Positions 3,088-49,950 of a DNA stretch of 51,598 nt are shown piece after piece; within the stretch, counting starts at the first letter, position 1; each line of letters begins with the position of its first letter. The notes below the pieces were generated by a model. The model had not been told where the DNA came from. It ran no database searches and worked only from the letters and a program-made list of their open reading frames with translations. Origin of the DNA: a virus; IMG/VR virus record IMGVR_UViG_3300018466_000001, positions 1 through 51,598 of that record. One strand, 5' to 3'. The translations under genes were made by a program, and so were the position numbers.

Positions 3088-3285
3088 TTATACCTCTTCT
3101 TCTGCCACCCGCCTCGCGTCAAAGGAGTAGAGCAGGGAGCCATCTTCCTGTGGAACCGGCGGAATGGTCGCTTGTCCCCTCCACACGTGCCCGTGCGCTG
3201 TCACCTCGAACCACGGCATGTCGGATTCCGGCATCTGGTGTTCGGGGACGGCGATGTCCACGTGTATGTACTGCGTCTCGCTCAT
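3088..3285 (-). CDS. Hypothetical protein (65 aa)
   Basis: ATG at 3285 overlaps the terminase stop (ATGA). Sequence begins MSETQYIHVDIAVPEHQ... Confidence 0.5.
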   Translation of the reverse strand: MSETQYIHVDIAVPEHQMPESDMPWFEVTAHGHVWRGQATIPPVPQEDGSLLYSFDARRVAEEEV

Positions 3286-4808
3286 TTGTAGGACACGTTT
3301 CCAGAGGTGGGAAGAGAACGGCGCGGCTTCGGTTCGTGGGTCAGCAGCAACTCGGTAATCAGCCACACCAGGGCGTCCAGACGGTTGGGCGACGGGTCTC
3401 CGGGCTCCCATGTGCAGAGTTCCTTCTCCAGCGCCACGAAGGTGCCCACGTGGTGCACGCGTCCGTCTTCGTAGAGCTTCTGGACGGGCTCGGCTCGGGT
3501 GCGCTTGCCCCGGCTGGCGTGGATCAGCTTCACCTTGGGCGCGTCAGGCACGGTGCCGATGGTGATCGCCACCATTTCGCCGCCGTTGTTGCTCTCGGCT
3601 ACCATGCGGTCCGCGTCCCAGCGCTTGAACGCCGCTACGGCTTCCTTGGCCCATGTCGCCGGCCCTCCTGCCGTGCTCGCGTCCTCAAGCACAAAGGCGT
3701 GCAGAATGCCCTTGATTCGCGCTACACCGCCCACGGCAATGCCGGCCTCGTCTCCACCCTCGGTAGCGTTCGGATCGATCCCCACGACGATGCGGAACAG
3801 GTCTGGCACGTTGACGGGCTTCTCGCGGAACGGATCAAGATCGCGCTCCCGGTTCCACAGTCCATCCTCTGACTCGTCTGTCTCGTGCTGCGCTTCGCGA
3901 AGGAACGCGGCCCTTCCCCACGTGTTCATTTGCGCTTCGCACGTTTCTATGCTCTGACCCGCCCACGTAGGCACGGCGTCGGTTATCTTGTACTGAGTGG
4001 GGACCGTGCCTGGAATGGCGTGATACCAATCTTTCGACAGGGGCGTTAGCGCGGGCTCGCAGAACACCTCTCTGCGCAACAGGAAATCCGCCGTGTTGTT
4101 GAGCAGCTTCGCGGCGATGCTGCCAGAGTGAATGACGTTCTGTACGAAAAGAACCGCTGCGTCGGTAGACTCTGCCGGGAGCACGCTCTGGGTTATGGTG
4201 GATATCTTCTTGTTGACCGTATCCTCCGTATCGTCCCTGTCGTCTACGTCGTCAAACACGAAAAGGTCTGGGCGATCACCCTCGATTTTTAGGCCGCGAG
4301 CCGCAGAGTCAAGCCCAAGAGCCAGCACGTTGAATCCGTTGTCGCACCGCAGCATGTCCACTCGCCAACCGAGGCTGCTTCCGTAGGGCCCGATCGCTCG
4401 CCCAATGCCCAGGTTCGTAAAGTGCGGAGCGATGTCCTGTAGGTGCTTGTTCGCCTGTGCCTGCGTTTTGGATATGTACAAGCAAAATTTGCGGGCCTGC
4501 CGCGCTCCCGTTCTCGTTGTCGCCAACTCAACAGTGGAGCTTTTGCCGCCTCCGCGAGGCCAGAGTTCCACCCGAGCATTTACGGGCCGCACACCACGAT
4601 TGAGCATCTCGAACCATTCCCACAAACGGACGTGCCTGTCCGCGAATGGGGATGATGTGGCGTGGGGGAAGTGCTTGGCAACCCACGTCCGCCAGTCTCC
4701 GGACGCACGCGGGCCGATCCGCTTGCCTTGCCCGGCGAAGTGGAACGGCCCTGTGCTTACCTGCGCCCAGTGCTTTAGGTTGGGCGGCGTGGTGTCCGGC
4801 CTGCTCAC
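3282..4808 (-). CDS. terL: Terminase large subunit
   Basis: 508 aa. Walker A-like LWPRGGGKSS and Walker B-like DLFVFDDVDD. The C-terminal half looks nuclease-like (VVGIDPN...). Sits upstream of the portal gene. Confidence 0.85.
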   Translation of the reverse strand: MSRPDTTPPNLKHWAQVSTGPFHFAGQGKRIGPRASGDWRTWVAKHFPHATSSPFADRHVRLWEWFEMLNRGVRPVNARVELWPRGGGKSSTVELATTRTGARQARKFCLYISKTQAQANKHLQDIAPHFTNLGIGRAIGPYGSSLGWRVDMLRCDNGFNVLALGLDSAARGLKIEGDRPDLFVFDDVDDRDDTEDTVNKKISTITQSVLPAESTDAAVLFVQNVIHSGSIAAKLLNNTADFLLRREVFCEPALTPLSKDWYHAIPGTVPTQYKITDAVPTWAGQSIETCEAQMNTWGRAAFLREAQHETDESEDGLWNRERDLDPFREKPVNVPDLFRIVVGIDPNATEGGDEAGIAVGGVARIKGILHAFVLEDASTAGGPATWAKEAVAAFKRWDADRMVAESNNGGEMVAITIGTVPDAPKVKLIHASRGKRTRAEPVQKLYEDGRVHHVGTFVALEKELCTWEPGDPSPNRLDALVWLITELLLTHEPKPRRSLPTSGNVSYK

Positions 4809-5057: not shown

Positions 5058-5608
5058 GTCCCACCCCTCTTCTTCTTGCGGAGTTGCTGTTCTTTGGTCA
5101 CGGGAGCGCGGGGAGCAAGCCCAACTCCACCCATAGATTGCGGTAACTGCGCCACGCAGCCTCCGACGCCCGCCGCTGGCGCATCCTCGCGCTCTTGCGC
5201 ATCCGCCGGGTCAGGATTCGAGGGGCGGCGATTATGAGTACGTCCGGAGCCAGCAAACCCGTTTCCCGCATCCGCACTCGCATCCTCGCGTGTCTCTTGC
5301 TCATCGGCTACCGAGTGTGCGGAGGCGGCGAAATCGTGACCTTCCCATCGGGGTCCACGGCGATGTTCAGGCTGCACGTCAGGCTCAGGTCTGCGCACTG
5401 GCGCATGAACATGCTCAGGCCCGTGCGATTGAGCGCCACCGTCTCTCCGGACCTCACCTTCGCGATGATCTCTTGCGCCGTTGCCACTGTACGCCTCCAC
5501 GGCTCTTCGGATGTACTCTGAGCGACTTACGCGGTCTGCGTAGGCCCTGTCGTCCCAGCGCTGCCACATATCCTCTGGCACAACGATGGTGCGGCGGTTG
5601 TCAGCCAT
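5054..5608 (-). CDS. Ribbon-helix-helix (CopG/Arc-like) domain protein with a long charged tail; small-terminase or regulator candidate
   Basis: Internal ATG at 5608. MADNRRTIVVPEDMWQRWDDRAYADRVSRSEYIRRAVEAY fits the RHH pattern. Confidence 0.5.
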   Translation of the reverse strand: MADNRRTIVVPEDMWQRWDDRAYADRVSRSEYIRRAVEAYSGNGARDHREGEVRRDGGAQSHGPEHVHAPVRRPEPDVQPEHRRGPRWEGHDFAASAHSVADEQETREDASADAGNGFAGSGRTHNRRPSNPDPADAQEREDAPAAGVGGCVAQLPQSMGGVGLAPRAPVTKEQQLRKKKRGGT

Positions 5609-5948
5609 TCCACCACTCCATCGCCTGCCCCTGTGGACCGAACGGCGGCTCTGTATCAGCGGGTGCCCAATGCGTGACGTAGTCGCTCTGAAGCTCGGCG
5701 GGCTTCCCGTTGTGGAGGTGCGTCCAGCGCCCATCGTAATCGCGCCAGCAGTCCCGTACGGCGAACGAGTCACCATAGATGTCGAGCCAGAGGATTACGC
5801 GGTCAGTGCTGGCGCCCTTGTAGCGGTTGGCGCTTCGCCACGGCTTGTTCGCTCTCATGTCCCTATCTGTCCCTGATGGGGTAGGTGATTGCGTTTGCGT
5901 TACTGATGCAGTATACACCATTGACCCACCGTGCGCAAGGTGCTGCAT
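5601..5948 (-). CDS. Hypothetical protein (start uncertain)
   Basis: 115-aa ORF. Its 3' end overlaps the next start by 8 nt (AATGGCTGA). Confidence 0.45.
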   Translation of the reverse strand: MQHLAHGGSMVYTASVTQTQSPTPSGTDRDMRANKPWRSANRYKGASTDRVILWLDIYGDSFAVRDCWRDYDGRWTHLHNGKPAELQSDYVTHWAPADTEPPFGPQGQAMEWWNG

Positions 5949-24584: not shown

Positions 24585-24894
24585 CATCGGTTGCCCACGG
24601 GCCGTTAGGCGCAGGCGCCATCGTGGGACAAATGATTTGCGGTGCAGAACGCCGGCAACACAGGGCTCAGTGCAGGATGGAGCGCCAGTCCTGCCTGCAC
24701 GCAACCTTTGGGGTGGGGCTTCACCTGAGCGAAGGCGACCGTGCGGTGTTTAGTCAAGTACATAATTCCGAAAGGATTCAGGGTCCGGTGGGAATCAGCC
24801 GTGCGACCGTGGGATTAGAAGACCACAGCAAAGGGCAAGTGACCGCAGGCCGGGAGGCGACAGGAGCGCGCGACCGCTCCACCCGGCACCACAT

Positions 24895-25012
24895 GGAGGG
24901 CGTGGGCAAACTGGTAAAGCCGACGCGCAGAGCGGATGATTCTGGACGCGGAGCGCCGCTAGGCCAGCGGTAAGCACGATCCGGATGCGGGTTCGACCCC
25001 CGCCGCCCTCCC
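24895..25012 (+). ncRNA. Aberrant 118-nt tRNA-like element (8-bp acceptor stacked on a 5-bp T-arm)
   Basis: GGAGGGCG pairs with CGCCCTCC. T-arm is GCGGG-TTCGACC-CCCGC. D-like arm is GGC-AAACTGGTAAA-GCC. An 84-nt non-canonical insert contains the hairpin CCGCT-AGGCC-AGCGG. Confidence 0.4.
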
Positions 25013-25118
25013 TTCACCCGGTGTTCCCGTACGTCGCCCGGTCAAGGCCGATCCTCGCACCTAAGCGGGGCGGAAATGCAAAGTGGACGGCTCGCGTGCG
25101 GGGCATCGGGGATCTCTT

Positions 25119-32805: not shown

Positions 32806-33225
32806 ATGAACGAACGAGTGCGCGCGCACCTCGCGGCACTACAAGAGGCGCGGGCCAGTCGGCGCCCCCAAGACCCCTTCAGCGGCGTTCTGGAAGCGGT
32901 GGAGGCCATCTGCGGTGCCGCAACGGCGCTGGAGTCCTGCGGTGGCGGGTGGGGCGCTGAATCCCTAGCTGGGCTGCGGCGCGCGGCCGACTTGCTGCTT
33001 GAGACCGACTTGGCGCGCGTCGAGGCGGATACAAGAAACCGCGCCATCGTTCTGGCCCCGCTGGCTGCTGCTGGGAACCGACCGCTAGCGCTTGCTCGGC
33101 TGGTTTGCCGTGGCATCGGGCTGGAATTGAGGGACAGTAGCCCTGACGTGGCGGACAGGTACGCGACGGCGGCCGGGGCTGTCGCCGTCGCGATGTCTCA
33201 CCCCTCGGCGGTGGTGCCCTCGTGA
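32806..33225 (+). CDS. Ala-rich hypothetical protein (139 aa)
   Basis: ATG at 32806 with GGAGTAGGGAG upstream. Confidence 0.5.
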   Translation: MNERVRAHLAALQEARASRRPQDPFSGVLEAVEAICGAATALESCGGGWGAESLAGLRRAADLLLETDLARVEADTRNRAIVLAPLAAAGNRPLALARLVCRGIGLELRDSSPDVADRYATAAGAVAVAMSHPSAVVPS

Positions 33226-33788
33226 GCGCCCCCATCACCACCTGCCCCACCTGCGGAACCCAGCGCCTCAACGGCCTCGTGGTGGAGAGCGGGACAGGGG
33301 AGCGCGTCACGCGCGAGGCGCAGGAGGCGAGCGGCGGGGTGACGGCGGACGAGATCGCCAGCGGGGCCCTCGCGTGGCTGGAGAGCGTCGTGTCGCAGTT
33401 GCGCGACAGGGCCAGCACCGCCGGTGCCTTCAAGACGCCCGCCGGGATGAAGCATGCGGCGGCGCTGCGTGCTGAGCTTGACCTCGGCTACGCCTGCCTC
33501 GCCGCCCTGCGTGCTGGCGCTCCCGCCGCCCCCGTGGTGGACGGCCTGCGCCAGCCAGCGACGGACGCCGCCGTGCCTCCCACGTTGCCAGTCGAGATCA
33601 AAGATGTAGACGACTACGTCCTGTGGGTGGGCGACGGGTGGCGGGGGTACCTGCGACTGGACGTGAAGCACCGCCACTGCAGCATGGTGGACCTGGACGA
33701 GTGCGGCGCCCGCCGGCTACGCGACGCGATCGACACGTGGCTGGTTGACGAACCTATCGCCGCCCCTGACGCGGGCGGTGCGCAGTGA
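33222..33788 (+). CDS. Hypothetical protein (188 aa) with N-terminal CPTCG
   Basis: GTG start in a GTGA overlap. Confidence 0.5.
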   Translation: MSAPITTCPTCGTQRLNGLVVESGTGERVTREAQEASGGVTADEIASGALAWLESVVSQLRDRASTAGAFKTPAGMKHAAALRAELDLGYACLAALRAGAPAAPVVDGLRQPATDAAVPPTLPVEIKDVDDYVLWVGDGWRGYLRLDVKHRHCSMVDLDECGARRLRDAIDTWLVDEPIAAPDAGGAQ

Positions 33789-46091: not shown

Positions 46092-47189
46092 TCAGGTGAA
46101 GGTGGGCGCCGTGTAGACTCCGCCGCTCCCAGCGTTCGCCCACAGGATCGCCCCGTTGGTGCGCGTCCACGCGCCGAAGCCGAACAGGGACGCCATGTGC
46201 CGGGCGTGCAGAAGGAACAGCTCCGTCTCCGCGTCGATGTAAAGGCCCTGCAACTGGCGCTCGGGCGGGATGCGCATGCGGAGAGGCTTGCGCGCATCGC
46301 TCGCGTCGAAGGCGAAGTAGTACTCGGCAGGCATCCACGGCTTCGTCCAGACTTCCGCGCCGTGGAAACGGCCGATGGCGCGGTTGTCCAGCCGGGACAT
46401 GTCAAGCACGCCGTCCGCCCGGTTGTTGGCGGTGCCGGGGATGATGCCGGCCTCCACGTACGGCGCGAAGTCCGTCAGCGTCTTTACGACCGCTTCCTGC
46501 GCCCTGTTGATGTAGATGCGCAGCGCGCCGCCGTGATCGTGCTCCACCACGTTGTCCACGAGCGCGATCAGGGCCGTGTTGAGCCCGGCGCCGGACGTGC
46601 TCGCCGTGGCGACGTAGTGCGTGTGCGTTGCCCCGTTGAACGAGAGGGCGTTGCGGTTGATCGGAATGGGGTCGCCGTCCGCGTTGAGCAGGCGCTTGAC
46701 CGCCAGCGTCTCGCCCACGGCTTCGGTGGCGAAGCGCTCGACTGCGGTAAAGTTGGTGGGACCAAAGAGGGTGTCGCGGATGCCGCGCCGCAGGGCGTTG
46801 ACATGACCGCGCTGCATCAGCAGTTGCTTTTCGATCATGTCCGAGACGGTGGAGCGGATGAAGTAGTCCCGCGTCCAGCCGGTGGCGATCTGGCGCTTGC
46901 GCATCGGCCATGCGACCTTGCCGCGAGCCTGTGCCTTCTGCGTCCGCACCTCGCCAAACTCATCCACTTCTTCCATGTTGGCGTCCTGCTCGACCCCATA
47001 CGTCCCCGTGCGCTCCGTGGTAGGGGCAACCAGATCGCCAAGCATGTTCTGAACCTGCGCGTTGTGCGCAGCCAGGGCATCCGTGAGCGGCTGGACGAGG
47101 TTTTCTACGCCGTAGTCGATGATGCGGCTTTCGGCCGCGTCGCGGTTGCTGAGCAGATCCGCGATTGTGTAGGTGCCAGTTACGGCCAT
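46092..47189 (-). CDS. Major capsid protein
   Basis: 365 aa, directly after the scaffold and decoration-like genes. The long plus-strand ORF 46197-47606 is its antisense shadow. Confidence 0.7.
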   Translation of the reverse strand: MAVTGTYTIADLLSNRDAAESRIIDYGVENLVQPLTDALAAHNAQVQNMLGDLVAPTTERTGTYGVEQDANMEEVDEFGEVRTQKAQARGKVAWPMRKRQIATGWTRDYFIRSTVSDMIEKQLLMQRGHVNALRRGIRDTLFGPTNFTAVERFATEAVGETLAVKRLLNADGDPIPINRNALSFNGATHTHYVATASTSGAGLNTALIALVDNVVEHDHGGALRIYINRAQEAVVKTLTDFAPYVEAGIIPGTANNRADGVLDMSRLDNRAIGRFHGAEVWTKPWMPAEYYFAFDASDARKPLRMRIPPERQLQGLYIDAETELFLLHARHMASLFGFGAWTRTNGAILWANAGSGGVYTAPTFT

Positions 47190-47636: not shown

Positions 47637-48302
47637 TCAGACGGAATAGTCTACCCGCGCCGTCACCGCCTTCTTGTGGTCTTCTGCCGTGCGCGCGCCA
47701 TCCGAAGAGGCGCCGCGCCCGCCGCGCTGTGCTGGCAGCGTGGGGTCCCCGCTACCAGCCTTGGCCGCGAACATGGTGTCGGGCAGGCTCTTGGCCTTCG
47801 CCCACTCGGAAAGACGCATCGCCTTACCGTCCACGGTCACGTAGCCCACCGCCAGCGTCTTTTTCACCTTCGCACCACCCTCGGACACTTCAACCTCTTC
47901 GTCCTTGGTCTCGAAGGGCGCATCTCCGAGGATCATGTCCAGCACGTTCGCGCTCTCCGGGACCCATCCCTCGGTAACCACGGCCTTCGCAAGCCCGTCC
48001 TGCCGCTCTCGGGTTGCGACTTTGCTCTTCAGGTCGCCGTGTTCCGTGACGATCTTCTTGACCTCGGCGGCGGGCAGTGCGAGGGCCTGTAGCGCCTCCC
48101 ATTCCTTCGCTTCCTCCGCAGTCAGCACCTTCGATCCTTCGGCGGGGACGGCCTTTAGCTTCTCGTCGCGCTCGCGGATCTCGTCACGCTGCTTCTGGTT
48201 GTCCTTCTCCAGCTTCGCCACCTTGGACGTGATGTCCGTGGGGCTCATCTGAAGGGCCAGGAACGACAGGTATTCGCGGTGCTGTGCTTCGGTGATTTCC
48301 AT
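47637..48302 (-). CDS. Scaffolding protein
   Basis: 221 aa, charged and coiled-coil (KVAKLEKDNQKQRDEIRERDEKLK), immediately upstream of the capsid genes. Confidence 0.65.
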   Translation of the reverse strand: MEITEAQHREYLSFLALQMSPTDITSKVAKLEKDNQKQRDEIRERDEKLKAVPAEGSKVLTAEEAKEWEALQALALPAAEVKKIVTEHGDLKSKVATRERQDGLAKAVVTEGWVPESANVLDMILGDAPFETKDEEVEVSEGGAKVKKTLAVGYVTVDGKAMRLSEWAKAKSLPDTMFAAKAGSGDPTLPAQRGGRGASSDGARTAEDHKKAVTARVDYSV

Positions 48303-48427
48303 CAGTGCTTCCGCATCGGAAGGTGGCGCTACGGCATCCGTAGCGAGGTGGGATCTGGTGCGTCCTGGCGCATCGCTGGACGCGTTTACTGCGGGGGTGC
48401 TGAGACCCTGGGTTGGTGCCTAACGAC

Positions 48428-48469
48428 AAAAAGCCCCGCCCTCCGCGCATCGCGAAGGAAGGAGCCTTT
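48428..48469 (-). terminator. Intrinsic terminator (long GC hairpin plus U5) for the tRNA-like RNA unit
   Basis: Minus-strand RNA: AAAGGCUCCUUCCUUCGCG-AUG-CGCGGAGGGCGGGGCUUUUU. Confidence 0.55.
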
Positions 48470-48555
48470 CCCGTGGCCCTGTGTCCCGTGTCTCCCTACA
48501 TGGTCTCAGGCGCCGGGACAGCGCTCTTCAGGAGCTACCCTAGAGACCATTTAAG

Positions 48556-48627
48556 GCGCGGCGGAGGGATTCGAACCCGCCCGGCGGTAGCAACCTAGCG
48601 CTACCGCTTCCCACTTCTCTCGCCGCA
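48556..48627 (-). ncRNA. 72-nt tRNA-like element lacking a canonical D-arm and anticodon loop
   Basis: Acceptor UGCGGCG/CGCCGCG, T-arm GCGGG-UUCGAAU-CCCUC (one mismatch), and a central 8-bp hairpin GCGGUAGC-GCUAGGUU-GCUACCGC. Confidence 0.45.
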
Positions 48628-48649
48628 CCGGTCTTTACTTCATACCTGC

Positions 48650-48678
48650 ACTATACGCTCCGGACGCCCTGTCGTCAA
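48650..48678 (-). promoter_or_regulatory. Promoter TTGACG-17-TATAGT for the tRNA-like RNA unit
   Basis: Read on the minus strand, back-to-back with the plus-strand promoter at 48697. Confidence 0.5.
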
Positions 48679-48764: not shown

Positions 48765-48989
48765 ATGATCGACCTGACGATGACCCCGACTCGGATCAAG
48801 CGCGCGGAGCAAGAGTGGACCCGGTGTGCAGGTGGCCTGCCGATCCGCGTAGAGGGCACGGAGATCGGCGCTCCGATCTACGGCTTCGGTGATGAACTAG
48901 CGATCCGCCGCCTTGCGGACAAGATGAAGTGCGGAACGTTCGGCTATAGCAAGAATCTCGGCACGTGGTACTTCTGCAACCAGAAGTGA
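48765..48989 (+). CDS. Hypothetical protein (74 aa); plus-strand moron inside the head module
   Basis: ATG at 48765 with GAGAG upstream. Confidence 0.5.
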   Translation: MIDLTMTPTRIKRAEQEWTRCAGGLPIRVEGTEIGAPIYGFGDELAIRRLADKMKCGTFGYSKNLGTWYFCNQK

Positions 48990-49297
48990 GCAACTCCGAT
49001 TTAGGCGCGCTGCTCGCGTGGGCGCGCCCGCAGATGGCCAGTTTCTTCGCCAACCCACCCGAGGGCCTGTGCAGCGGGGCTAACTATCACGCCTCCGCAC
49101 TCGCCTGCTTGGACCAAGTCATTCGAGAAGGCGCTGGCGCACCCGACAAGATCCGGCTTGAAGCGGTGCATCAGGCCCGACAGTGGATGGGCAAGATCAT
49201 CGCTGACATGCCCGAGGGGAAATGCGAGGTCGGGGTTGCGGCATACGCCAAATGGGAGGCATGCATCCGAAAGTTACCGACTGCTTGGAGGCCGTGA
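48986..49297 (+). CDS. Hypothetical protein (103 aa)
   Basis: GTG at 48986 in a GTGA overlap. Confidence 0.45.
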   Translation: MSNSDLGALLAWARPQMASFFANPPEGLCSGANYHASALACLDQVIREGAGAPDKIRLEAVHQARQWMGKIIADMPEGKCEVGVAAYAKWEACIRKLPTAWRP

Positions 49298-49335: not shown

Positions 49336-49950
49336 TCACCTGAATTCCCATTCGCACTTGCATCGCGTACGGCAATCGCGTGCCCCAATCTCGGGTACTT
49401 CCCTGCTCTTGATCGGGTGCCAACCCGCCGCCGTGGCCGCCACGCACCCCGCGCACGAATCCCCACGGTGCCGCTTGTTGCGCTTCTCGGTAGATCCGCG
49501 CAAGTCCTGCTCGGCTATCTCTATGCGGTGGTAGAGAGGGCGTCCGGCTTGGGTGTATAGGTGCGCGCGGGCGTTCAGCCTGCCGTCCAGCAGTTGTCGG
49601 CCCGCCTGCACGTCCTGGGCGAAACCGCGTAGGTACTGGTACTGGCCTCGTACGTACTGCCCCACCCGCCCGTAATCCGCATCGCTCATCTGCGCCCAAC
49701 CACCCTTAGCAGCCGCAGCGCTGTAGAGGGAGACGTTCTTGATCTCGCGGCGCATGGCGACTTCCCAGGAGATCAGGTCTATGTTGCCGGTCCGCAGGGC
49801 TGTTGCGAGGCCGTCAATACGTTTCGTGGCGGTGTCTAGAGCTACGTCCAGCCACGCGCGGACCTGTGCAGGCTGAACAAATCGGCCGCCGGGTCCGCGA
49901 TACCTGCCTGCCACGCGGTCGTAAGTGTACTCAGGACGTTTGCGCGGCAT
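49336..49950 (-). CDS. Head morphogenesis/minor capsid protein (MuF/SPP1 gp7-like)
   Basis: 204 aa. C-terminal Cys cluster ...CAGC...DCRTRCKCEW resembles the CRC-type ending of gp7-family proteins. Position is between the portal and scaffold genes. Confidence 0.4.
   Translation of the reverse strand: MPRKRPEYTYDRVAGRYRGPGGRFVQPAQVRAWLDVALDTATKRIDGLATALRTGNIDLISWEVAMRREIKNVSLYSAAAAKGGWAQMSDADYGRVGQYVRGQYQYLRGFAQDVQAGRQLLDGRLNARAHLYTQAGRPLYHRIEIAEQDLRGSTEKRNKRHRGDSCAGCVAATAAGWHPIKSREVPEIGARDCRTRCKCEWEFR

Follow-up and report, generated by a model that had tools for sequence, protein, structure and literature searches.

The window analysed here is the whole of a viral record of 51,598 bases, which is complete, has direct terminal repeats and a G+C content of 63%, and carries nearly all of its genes on the minus strand. 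Its source is an uncultured, non-integrating tailed phage. In minus-strand order, the large terminase gene (3282-4808; Pfam Terminase_6C match) is followed by a gene for a 571-aa protein and then, past the record ends, by small genes and the gene for a 204-aa protein (49336-49950; phrog_24776). Two plus-strand genes (48765-49297) separate the latter from a gap of 463 nt, beyond which lie a putative scaffold gene of 221 aa (47637-48302, minus strand), a 136-aa gene, both ORF calls on the same strand, and the major capsid gene (46092-47189, minus strand), whose product matches phrog_3990 with an E-value of 5e-29. An initial annotation had described this region as a run of genes from MuF to scaffold; 'MuF' and 'scaffold' are labels by position only, neither the 204-aa nor the 221-aa protein having a Pfam family match. 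In agreement with the lack of an integrase stated in that annotation, tyrosine and serine recombinases (PF00589, PF00239) are absent from the complete genome, as is an alpA gene (PF05930). A genuine tRNA-Gln at 25.4 kb is the only tRNA found by ARAGORN and Rfam in the window.

The gap ahead of the putative scaffold gene houses an RNA unit delimited by a promoter and a terminator, both on the minus strand. The sigma-70-type promoter (48650-48678) comprises a -35 hexamer, TTGACG (48678-48673), a 17-nt spacer and a -10 hexamer, TATAGT (48655-48650). It agrees with the consensus at 10 of 12 positions and is the sole sigma-70-like site in the 2 kb between 47500 and 49500, where shuffled sequences would be expected to yield 0.3. 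Transcription probably starts near 48643. Both hexamers and their spacing are identical in three related phages, designated L005 and L008 (by scan) and L022 (by reading). About 215 nt later lies an intrinsic terminator (48428-48466), a G+C-rich hairpin of 15 pairs (-23.7 kcal/mol) followed by UUUUU, the stem of which is kept with compensatory changes in relatives. This hairpin was missed by a simple terminator scan, probably owing to an internal stem mismatch. The free energy of the whole unit, taken alone, is not unusual (z = -1.5); the recurrence of promoter, helix, repeats and terminator in relatives, with compensatory changes, is beyond chance. Promoter and terminator had both been recognized in the initial annotation, which had further set the unit back-to-back with the promoter of a two-gene plus-strand moron. 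The two genes are present; for their promoter, no plus-strand site reaches the scan threshold, and the one read by eye agrees at only 8 of 12 positions.

Downstream of the terminator, the 5' untranslated region (UTR) of the putative scaffold gene (48303-48427, minus strand) contains two conserved hairpins, 48344-48328 and 48322-48308, the second of which buries a GGAAG ribosome-binding site 5 nt ahead of the scaffold AUG. The hairpin stems show compensatory changes, CUUCCG/CGGAAG in the window being CUACCG/CGGUAG in the relative L003. These hairpins occur in the window, L002, L003, L004, L005, L008 and L022, even where the RNA unit is absent, and they may constitute a separate translational control.

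Within the unit, the first structured segment is a non-canonical tRNA-like element of 72-75 nt (48555-48629, minus strand), recognized from its sequence and predicted fold. It has an acceptor stem of 7 bp (48627-48621 with 48563-48557), which includes U1-G72 and is extendable to 9 bp, a central 8-bp hairpin (48607-48584) with an 8-nt loop, GCUAGGUU, a variable region of 3 nt and a T arm (48580-48564), whilst the D arm is replaced by 13 unpaired nt. These details bear out the tRNA-sized element of the initial annotation. The T arm, with one C-U stem mismatch, bears a UUCGAAU loop that fits the UUCRANY loop of tRNAs; the element lacks both a D arm and the usual anticodon stem of 5 bp with its loop of 7 nt, and its anticodon-like arm exceeds the proper length by 7 nt. 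Scans with ARAGORN and Rfam had been put forward in the initial annotation: neither ARAGORN nor the Rfam tRNA model (RF00005) calls a tRNA here, and the best Rfam match, obtained at a lax threshold, is to tRNA-Sec, with 17.6 bits and an E-value of 0.9 against a cut-off of 47. Judged by its predicted structure, the element keeps the features that tRNA-end enzymes recognise, namely the acceptor stem and T arm, and loses those that decoding needs.

Relatives of the unit and the conserved fold

The relatives' loci were recovered in several cases through homologues of the 204-aa protein, of which metagenomes contain 117, in one case through a metagenome scan with the scaffold protein and in the case of L022 through a DNA pattern. 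The comparison set consisted of nine relatives and one more distant phage. Close DNA relatives are absent among GenBank phages, where a tblastn search with the capsid protein was also negative. Protein-pattern scans of IMG/VR with the 204-aa and scaffold proteins gave no relatives, the metagenome scan giving one locus, and exact-core DNA scans of IMG/VR gave either no match or L022 only. The UTR-hairpin pattern was found at 16 loci, L022 being the only relative among them. Bacterial genomes, scanned with a pattern of the motif, yielded a single chance match in a coding region of a Desulfobulbus metagenome-assembled genome, and neither a prophage nor a host.

The order of elements is the same in ten phages: promoter, variable RNA cargo, a structured motif, two complements of its loop (C1 and C2), terminator, UTR hairpins and scaffold gene. 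The conserved stretch between the variable RNA and the terminator amounts to about 90 nt. The slot upstream of it is occupied by differing, odd tRNA look-alikes in L002, L005 and L008, for which ARAGORN gives a loose call or none and which fall below the Rfam tRNA cut-off, by true tRNAs in L022 (Thr, Gly), L029 and L006 (Leu), and by a non-tRNA structure in L004; in L030 it is empty. In the more distant phage, L047, a tRNA is likewise followed by the motif, a terminator and the scaffold gene. Two relatives, L003 and L026, lack the whole unit; in these, a similar promoter stands some 130 nt upstream of the scaffold start and leads into the same UTR hairpins. Because the contents of the slot vary, and because L003 and L026 lack the unit, the tRNA-like element is variable, accessory cargo, the least conserved part of a unit that sits in the leader of the scaffold operon.

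Several other features of these loci were observed. A 67-nt tRNA-like call by ARAGORN directly precedes the motif in L005 (5881-5947); it has a CUA (amber) anticodon in a standard 7-nt loop and scores below the Rfam tRNA cut-off, and the loop of its counterpart in the window contains CUAG. Long, class-II-like tRNA look-alikes with a small hairpin in place of the anticodon loop are found at L005:5624-5732 and L008:1066-1178, which have this design in common, with compensatory changes, and a second tRNA-like element in the window, at 24.9 kb (24890-25016), loosely resembles them. Further stretches that are ORF-free and G+C-rich are located between the promoter or tRNAs and the motif in L022 (about 170 nt past the promoter), L092 (1580-1820, minus strand) and L002 (5195-5290), and may be additional RNAs. 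Although L003 is without the motif, a hairpin resembling a terminator, with a tail rich in T, separates its promoter from the scaffold gene (5531-5551).

The motif itself is a three-way junction of the int-alpA type (48500-48550, minus strand), supported by a covariance model and by compensatory changes. It is closed by P1, an 8-bp helix, AUGGUCUC / GAGACCAU, that pairs 48550-48543 with 48507-48500 and corresponds to the 8-bp helix of the initial annotation. The other two arms are the P2 mini-hairpin (48540-48531) and the P3 hairpin (48524-48510), which presents the loop UGUCCCG. The elements are read in the order P1, UAGGG, P2, GAARAG, P3 (with a GCGC stem), CU and P1', and the junction bases UAGGG, GAARAG and CCUG are invariant. 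Further along the same strand, the P3 loop is complemented by C1, CGGGACA (48482-48488), a 7-bp pseudoknot partner with a duplex energy of -12.1 kcal/mol, and by C2, CGGGAAA (48467-48473), with which it pairs over the 5 bp of CGGGA (-8.1 kcal/mol). In the scaffold-leader family C2 ends 0-3 nt ahead of the terminator stem. C1 and C2 are the CACGGGA-type repeats of the initial annotation, found as described and now interpreted, from the comparison of sequences, as two loop complements forming a covarying pseudoknot.

Across the family, P1 comprises 6-8 bp in six different sequences and is always paired. Compensatory changes affect all eight of its pairs in 30 sequences, in which 97.5% of cells pair, as opposed to 72% in shuffles and 28-55% (about 40%) with slid partners. 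These figures derive from a model-based alignment, used in place of a raw MAFFT alignment on which RNAalifold missed P1 and P3 through one-column offsets. The P3 loop, by contrast with the invariant junction bases, varies by lineage (UGUCCCG, UGUCGUG, UCCUCUGG, UUUCCGUG, AGUCCGUA), and each lineage has the complement of its own loop twice downstream, as C1 and C2. Loop and C1 covary over a total of 22 distinct loop sequences. Each of 27 sequences, both layouts included, contains one or more complements of its own loop, and two or more own-loop sites of at least five pairs are present in 81% of these 27, compared with 23-25% when loops are swapped or shuffled. A third complement in the 3' strand of the terminator, which would allow anti-terminator pairing, was seen in five of ten cases and is no commoner than with swapped loops (22-36%). 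Taken together, the helix and repeats appear from this conservation to be the functional core of the unit, so that the emphasis of the initial annotation, which had dwelt on the tRNA-like domain and placed helix and repeats last, is reversed.

Hammerhead, HDV-like, twister and pistol ribozymes were considered as identities for the fold and rejected, their junction lengths, core bases and strand order being a misfit by eye and none giving an Rfam match. A separate pairing was noticed between GAGACAC (48495-48489), just before C1, and GUCUC (48404-48398), just past the terminator. Pairing of this type recurs at the same places in L002, L004, L005, L008 and L022, the partners becoming GGACAC and GUGUCC in L008 and L022, and in transcripts that read through, this possible long-range helix would enclose the terminator.

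Relationship to the int-alpA family

A covariance model built from nine sequences (R1) finds one copy of the fold in the window. A loose pattern of the core retrieved 60 viral loci, 24 of which are matched by R1, and eight of the 11 R1-matching loci that were scanned pass the Rfam cut-off for the int-alpA RNA motif (RF02996; gathering threshold 35.8 bits), which originates from Weinberg et al. 2017 (PMC5737381). Two loci matching an L006-type pattern, L031 and L032, were discarded as apparent coding regions without a model match at an E-value of 0.1. When a second model (R2) was made from only the eight sequences passing the Rfam cut-off, it scored 48467-48552 of the window at 58.8 bits (E 5e-17), a value to be read with the caveat that these eight were aligned with the help of R1, itself built from the window's own family. 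The Rfam int-alpA model matches neither the window nor L022 even at an E-value of 10, and gives L047 32 bits. Since the window copy falls below the Rfam threshold yet reaches 58.8 bits with a model derived from above-threshold sequences, the fold is, on the strength of covariance modelling, a divergent, terminator-coupled member of int-alpA. Window 48467-48552 and L022:4492-4577 both have the near-full consensus; they score about 60 bits with the model of Rfam-validated members and receive no score from that of Rfam.

The resemblance extends throughout the fold. Both int-alpA and the window copy run through P1, UAG, P2 (GGG...CCC), CGAAAAG, P3 (GCG...) with a pyrimidine-rich loop, CCUG and P1', and the window junction, UAGGG...CCUGAAGAGCGC...GCGCCUG, is two junction bases off the int-alpA consensus. 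The 3' tail of that consensus complements the loop, just as in the window (7 bp with C1, 5 bp with C2), and int-alpA likewise occurs in phages. The differences lie in context: int-alpA is associated with integrase and alpA genes, neither of which is present in the window, whereas the window copy has an intrinsic terminator ahead of a scaffold gene and a tRNA-like element on its 5' side. Rfam, moreover, types int-alpA as 'Gene; sRNA', whilst the anatomy in the window points to action in cis. In the literature searched, int-alpA is mentioned only among tabulated small RNAs of E. coli and as a satellite gene order, and no functional study was found.

Seventeen copies from other phages were read for the downstream start codon and for complements of the loop. 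Tail complements of at least four pairs are present in all 17, at two or more distinct sites in 16. The last of them ends 2-7 nt before the start codon, a spacing characteristic of ribosome-binding sites, in 14 of the 17, and at 9-10 nt (two copies) or 24 nt (one) in the others; the preceding complement is more distant from the start codon, in most cases by 17-26 nt. The genes downstream are mixed and encode endonucleases of the HNH and GIY-YIG types, a tail chaperone, a tail tube protein, a glycosyltransferase, a methyltransferase, a primase and unknowns. By BLAST, the motif is also present in cultured phages of Pseudomonas, Vibrio and Rhizobium.

Among individual copies, that of Pseudomonas phage vB_PaS_IME307 (L093; 32869-32953) lies in the tail module under the first 90 nt of a hypothetical coding sequence (32862-33425), the annotated start of which has probably been called too early. 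Free-standing homing-type endonuclease genes (HNH; NUMOD3 with AP2) stand directly behind int-alpA at L037:1777-2361, L059:2924-3496 and L040:5131-6111, where the loop complements their ribosome-binding sites. Two phage contigs contain the motif a second time, in a weaker copy (L069:8451-8539 and L079:4232-4323), which implies that some phages use the motif more than once.

Proposed action in cis and competing explanations

Two observations link the unit to the genes that follow it. No second sigma-70-like promoter was found between the terminator and the scaffold start in the window, L005 or L008, and in the relatives without the unit a promoter stands directly before the same UTR; the unit is therefore best placed as the leader of the scaffold/capsid operon. 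In addition, since the P3 loop covaries with complements in cis, the second of which lies just before the next start codon in other phages, the loop would act on its own transcript. A function in cis is accordingly the best-supported reading, although the preference for it is modest. In its specific form, favoured to a similarly limited degree on comparison of the sequences, the unit would consist of a promoter and a structured cis-acting leader or attenuator of about 340 nt for the scaffold-capsid operon, in which the choice of pairing partner sets the level of read-through. The initial annotation had taken the locus for a stand-alone small-RNA unit that interrupts the head module. That an RNA unit runs from promoter to terminator has been upheld; its independence has not, given the lack of a second scaffold promoter and the layout in relatives, and a mere interruption of the module is not supported. 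Against a leader, the Rfam typing as an sRNA, together with the unit's own promoter and terminator, also fits a discrete small RNA, and a metabolite riboswitch would not be expected to precede genes as mixed as those downstream in other phages. There might also be a late promoter specific to the phage after the terminator, beyond the reach of a consensus scan.

The following sequence of events is envisaged. A strong promoter of the host type would start the transcript, and the degenerate tRNA-like element would be made first, possibly serving as a processing handle for nucleases acting on tRNA ends and so giving the downstream RNA a defined 5' end. The interval of 2-16 nt between the tRNA or tRNA-like element and P1 in the window, L005, L008, L022 and the unrelated L033 would be compatible with such a role. 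A tRNA next to the motif is not general, being restricted to the scaffold-leader family and L033 and found at none of the other matching loci. The int-alpA-type fold would follow, with P3 presenting a 7-nt loop able, as the covariation shows, to pair with either of the two downstream complements. In most other phages the second complement coincides with the expected ribosome-binding site, and the choice of partner would control translation. In the family of the window it abuts the terminator, and the same choice would determine whether transcription stops at 48428 or reads through into the head genes. From this position of C2, modulated termination may set the dosage or timing of the capsid genes.

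Known systems share parts of this arrangement. The c4 antisense RNA of the P1/P7 immI operon, small and folded, is transcribed together with its target. Pairing takes place between its loops and sites downstream on the same transcript, one of them over a ribosome-binding site, and RNase P releases it from a precursor. The window loop similarly has downstream complements in cis and a tRNA-like element directly upstream, but the c4 fold is not a three-way junction with the junction bases of the window and there is no Rfam c4 match in the region. In the riboswitches preQ1-II and SAM-II, whose H-type pseudoknots mask the ribosome-binding site, and in PK-repZ, a pseudoknot activator of plasmid rep genes, a hairpin loop pairs at or next to a ribosome-binding site, as in the present motif, and riboswitch classes also couple one sensor domain to outputs of both the translational and the terminator type. 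They differ in that the genes controlled by the present fold are heterogeneous, that there is a second, decoy complement and that no sequence match exists. The MHV68 TMERs, the stable RNAs of the T4 tRNA cluster and the GOLLD and ROOL RNAs likewise place a tRNA or tRNA-like element directly 5' of a structured RNA in one transcript, although these are other RNAs of other hosts and tRNA adjacency is not general for the int-alpA motif. GOLLD and ROOL have been described near tRNAs in prophages (PMC5737381).

The principal rival to a cis-acting leader, and a fairly unlikely one, is that a terminated transcript of about 215 nt acts in trans as a stand-alone sRNA, perhaps after being cut into the tRNA-like piece and an int-alpA RNA of about 140 nt, with the P3 loop pairing to targets elsewhere and read-through into the scaffold gene being incidental leakage. 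A strong promoter and a strong terminator of its own, the Rfam listing as 'Gene; sRNA' and the presence of two copies in some phages (L069, L079), as for a regulator with several sites of action, all suit this proposal. It is opposed by the loop complements, which occur in cis, twice, and covary with the loop in every lineage, the second lying just before the adjacent start codon in other phages, at the expected ribosome-binding site; it also leaves the scaffold gene without another recognisable promoter. The same promoter and terminator call to mind the late leader of phage lambda, PR'-6S RNA-tR', in which a constitutive promoter, a leader of about 200 nt and a terminator immediately precede the late structural genes. 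A leader of this type, in which a protein antiterminator loaded at the promoter enables the polymerase to pass the terminator and the RNA fold has no part in the decision, would suit a consensus promoter and a strong terminator some 215 nt apart directly before the head genes. It is nonetheless improbable here. Lambda needs Q and its leader fold is not conserved, whereas no match to the Q-family antiterminators PF06530 and PF03589 was obtained in the genome at an E-value of 1, although distant analogues may exist, and a deeply conserved fold, found also without terminators before unrelated genes, would be left unexplained.

The remaining alternatives concern the tRNA-like element. That it functions in decoding as a tRNA, such as an amber suppressor, with the rest of the unit as its 3' trailer, might be argued from the CUA in its loop, from the CUA anticodon that ARAGORN calls in the L005 counterpart (5881-5947, with U33-CUA in a proper 7-nt loop), from its tRNA-like acceptor stem, T loop and GG-containing connector, and from the true tRNAs that occupy the same slot in L022, L029 and L006. 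Yet it has no D stem, its T stem is mismatched and neither ARAGORN nor the Rfam tRNA model calls it; an 8-bp anticodon-like stem with an 8-nt loop, moreover, misfits the geometry of the ribosome. Nor is there an in-frame TAG in the real genes, every candidate site being antisense to genes, and a suppressor role thus has no visible use. Stop-codon recoding by the CUA-bearing element is rejected on this ground, and decoding in general is highly improbable. Less credible still is a relic of a tRNA-derived attachment site (attP), an explanation that the initial annotation had already rated as weak. Its one attraction is that the 3' half of the element resembles the 3' end of a tRNA. The complete genome lacks a tyrosine or serine recombinase, no integrase family is listed among the called genes that flank the unit within 3.5 kb in relatives, the slot is part of a transcript with a promoter of its own and is filled by unrelated tRNAs from one phage to another, and the exact 28-mer is missing from other viral contigs.

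In the cis-acting leader, a ligand, a protein or timing might flip the choice of partner. It is conceivable, if rather doubtful, that the int-alpA fold is a sensor domain, either a riboswitch or a factor-binding switch, that gates genes by masking ribosome-binding sites or, in the present phage, by way of an intrinsic terminator. The coupling of a single sensor domain to two kinds of output is a signature of regulatory switches, and this would be a switch governing the phages' own late genes. The int-alpA motif has stood as an orphan since it was described in 2017, and an entire branch of the family escapes the Rfam model. The present comparison supplies the motif with a testable anatomy, consisting of a presented loop, a decoy and a functional complement, and its occurrence in cultured phages makes experiments feasible. 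If the fold is indeed a sensor, the genes under its control would include those for heads, tails, homing endonucleases and replication, and it would, in the phage studied here, time the synthesis of scaffold and capsid proteins, with the upstream tRNA-like element acting as the nuclease handle that sets the 5' end of the sensor.
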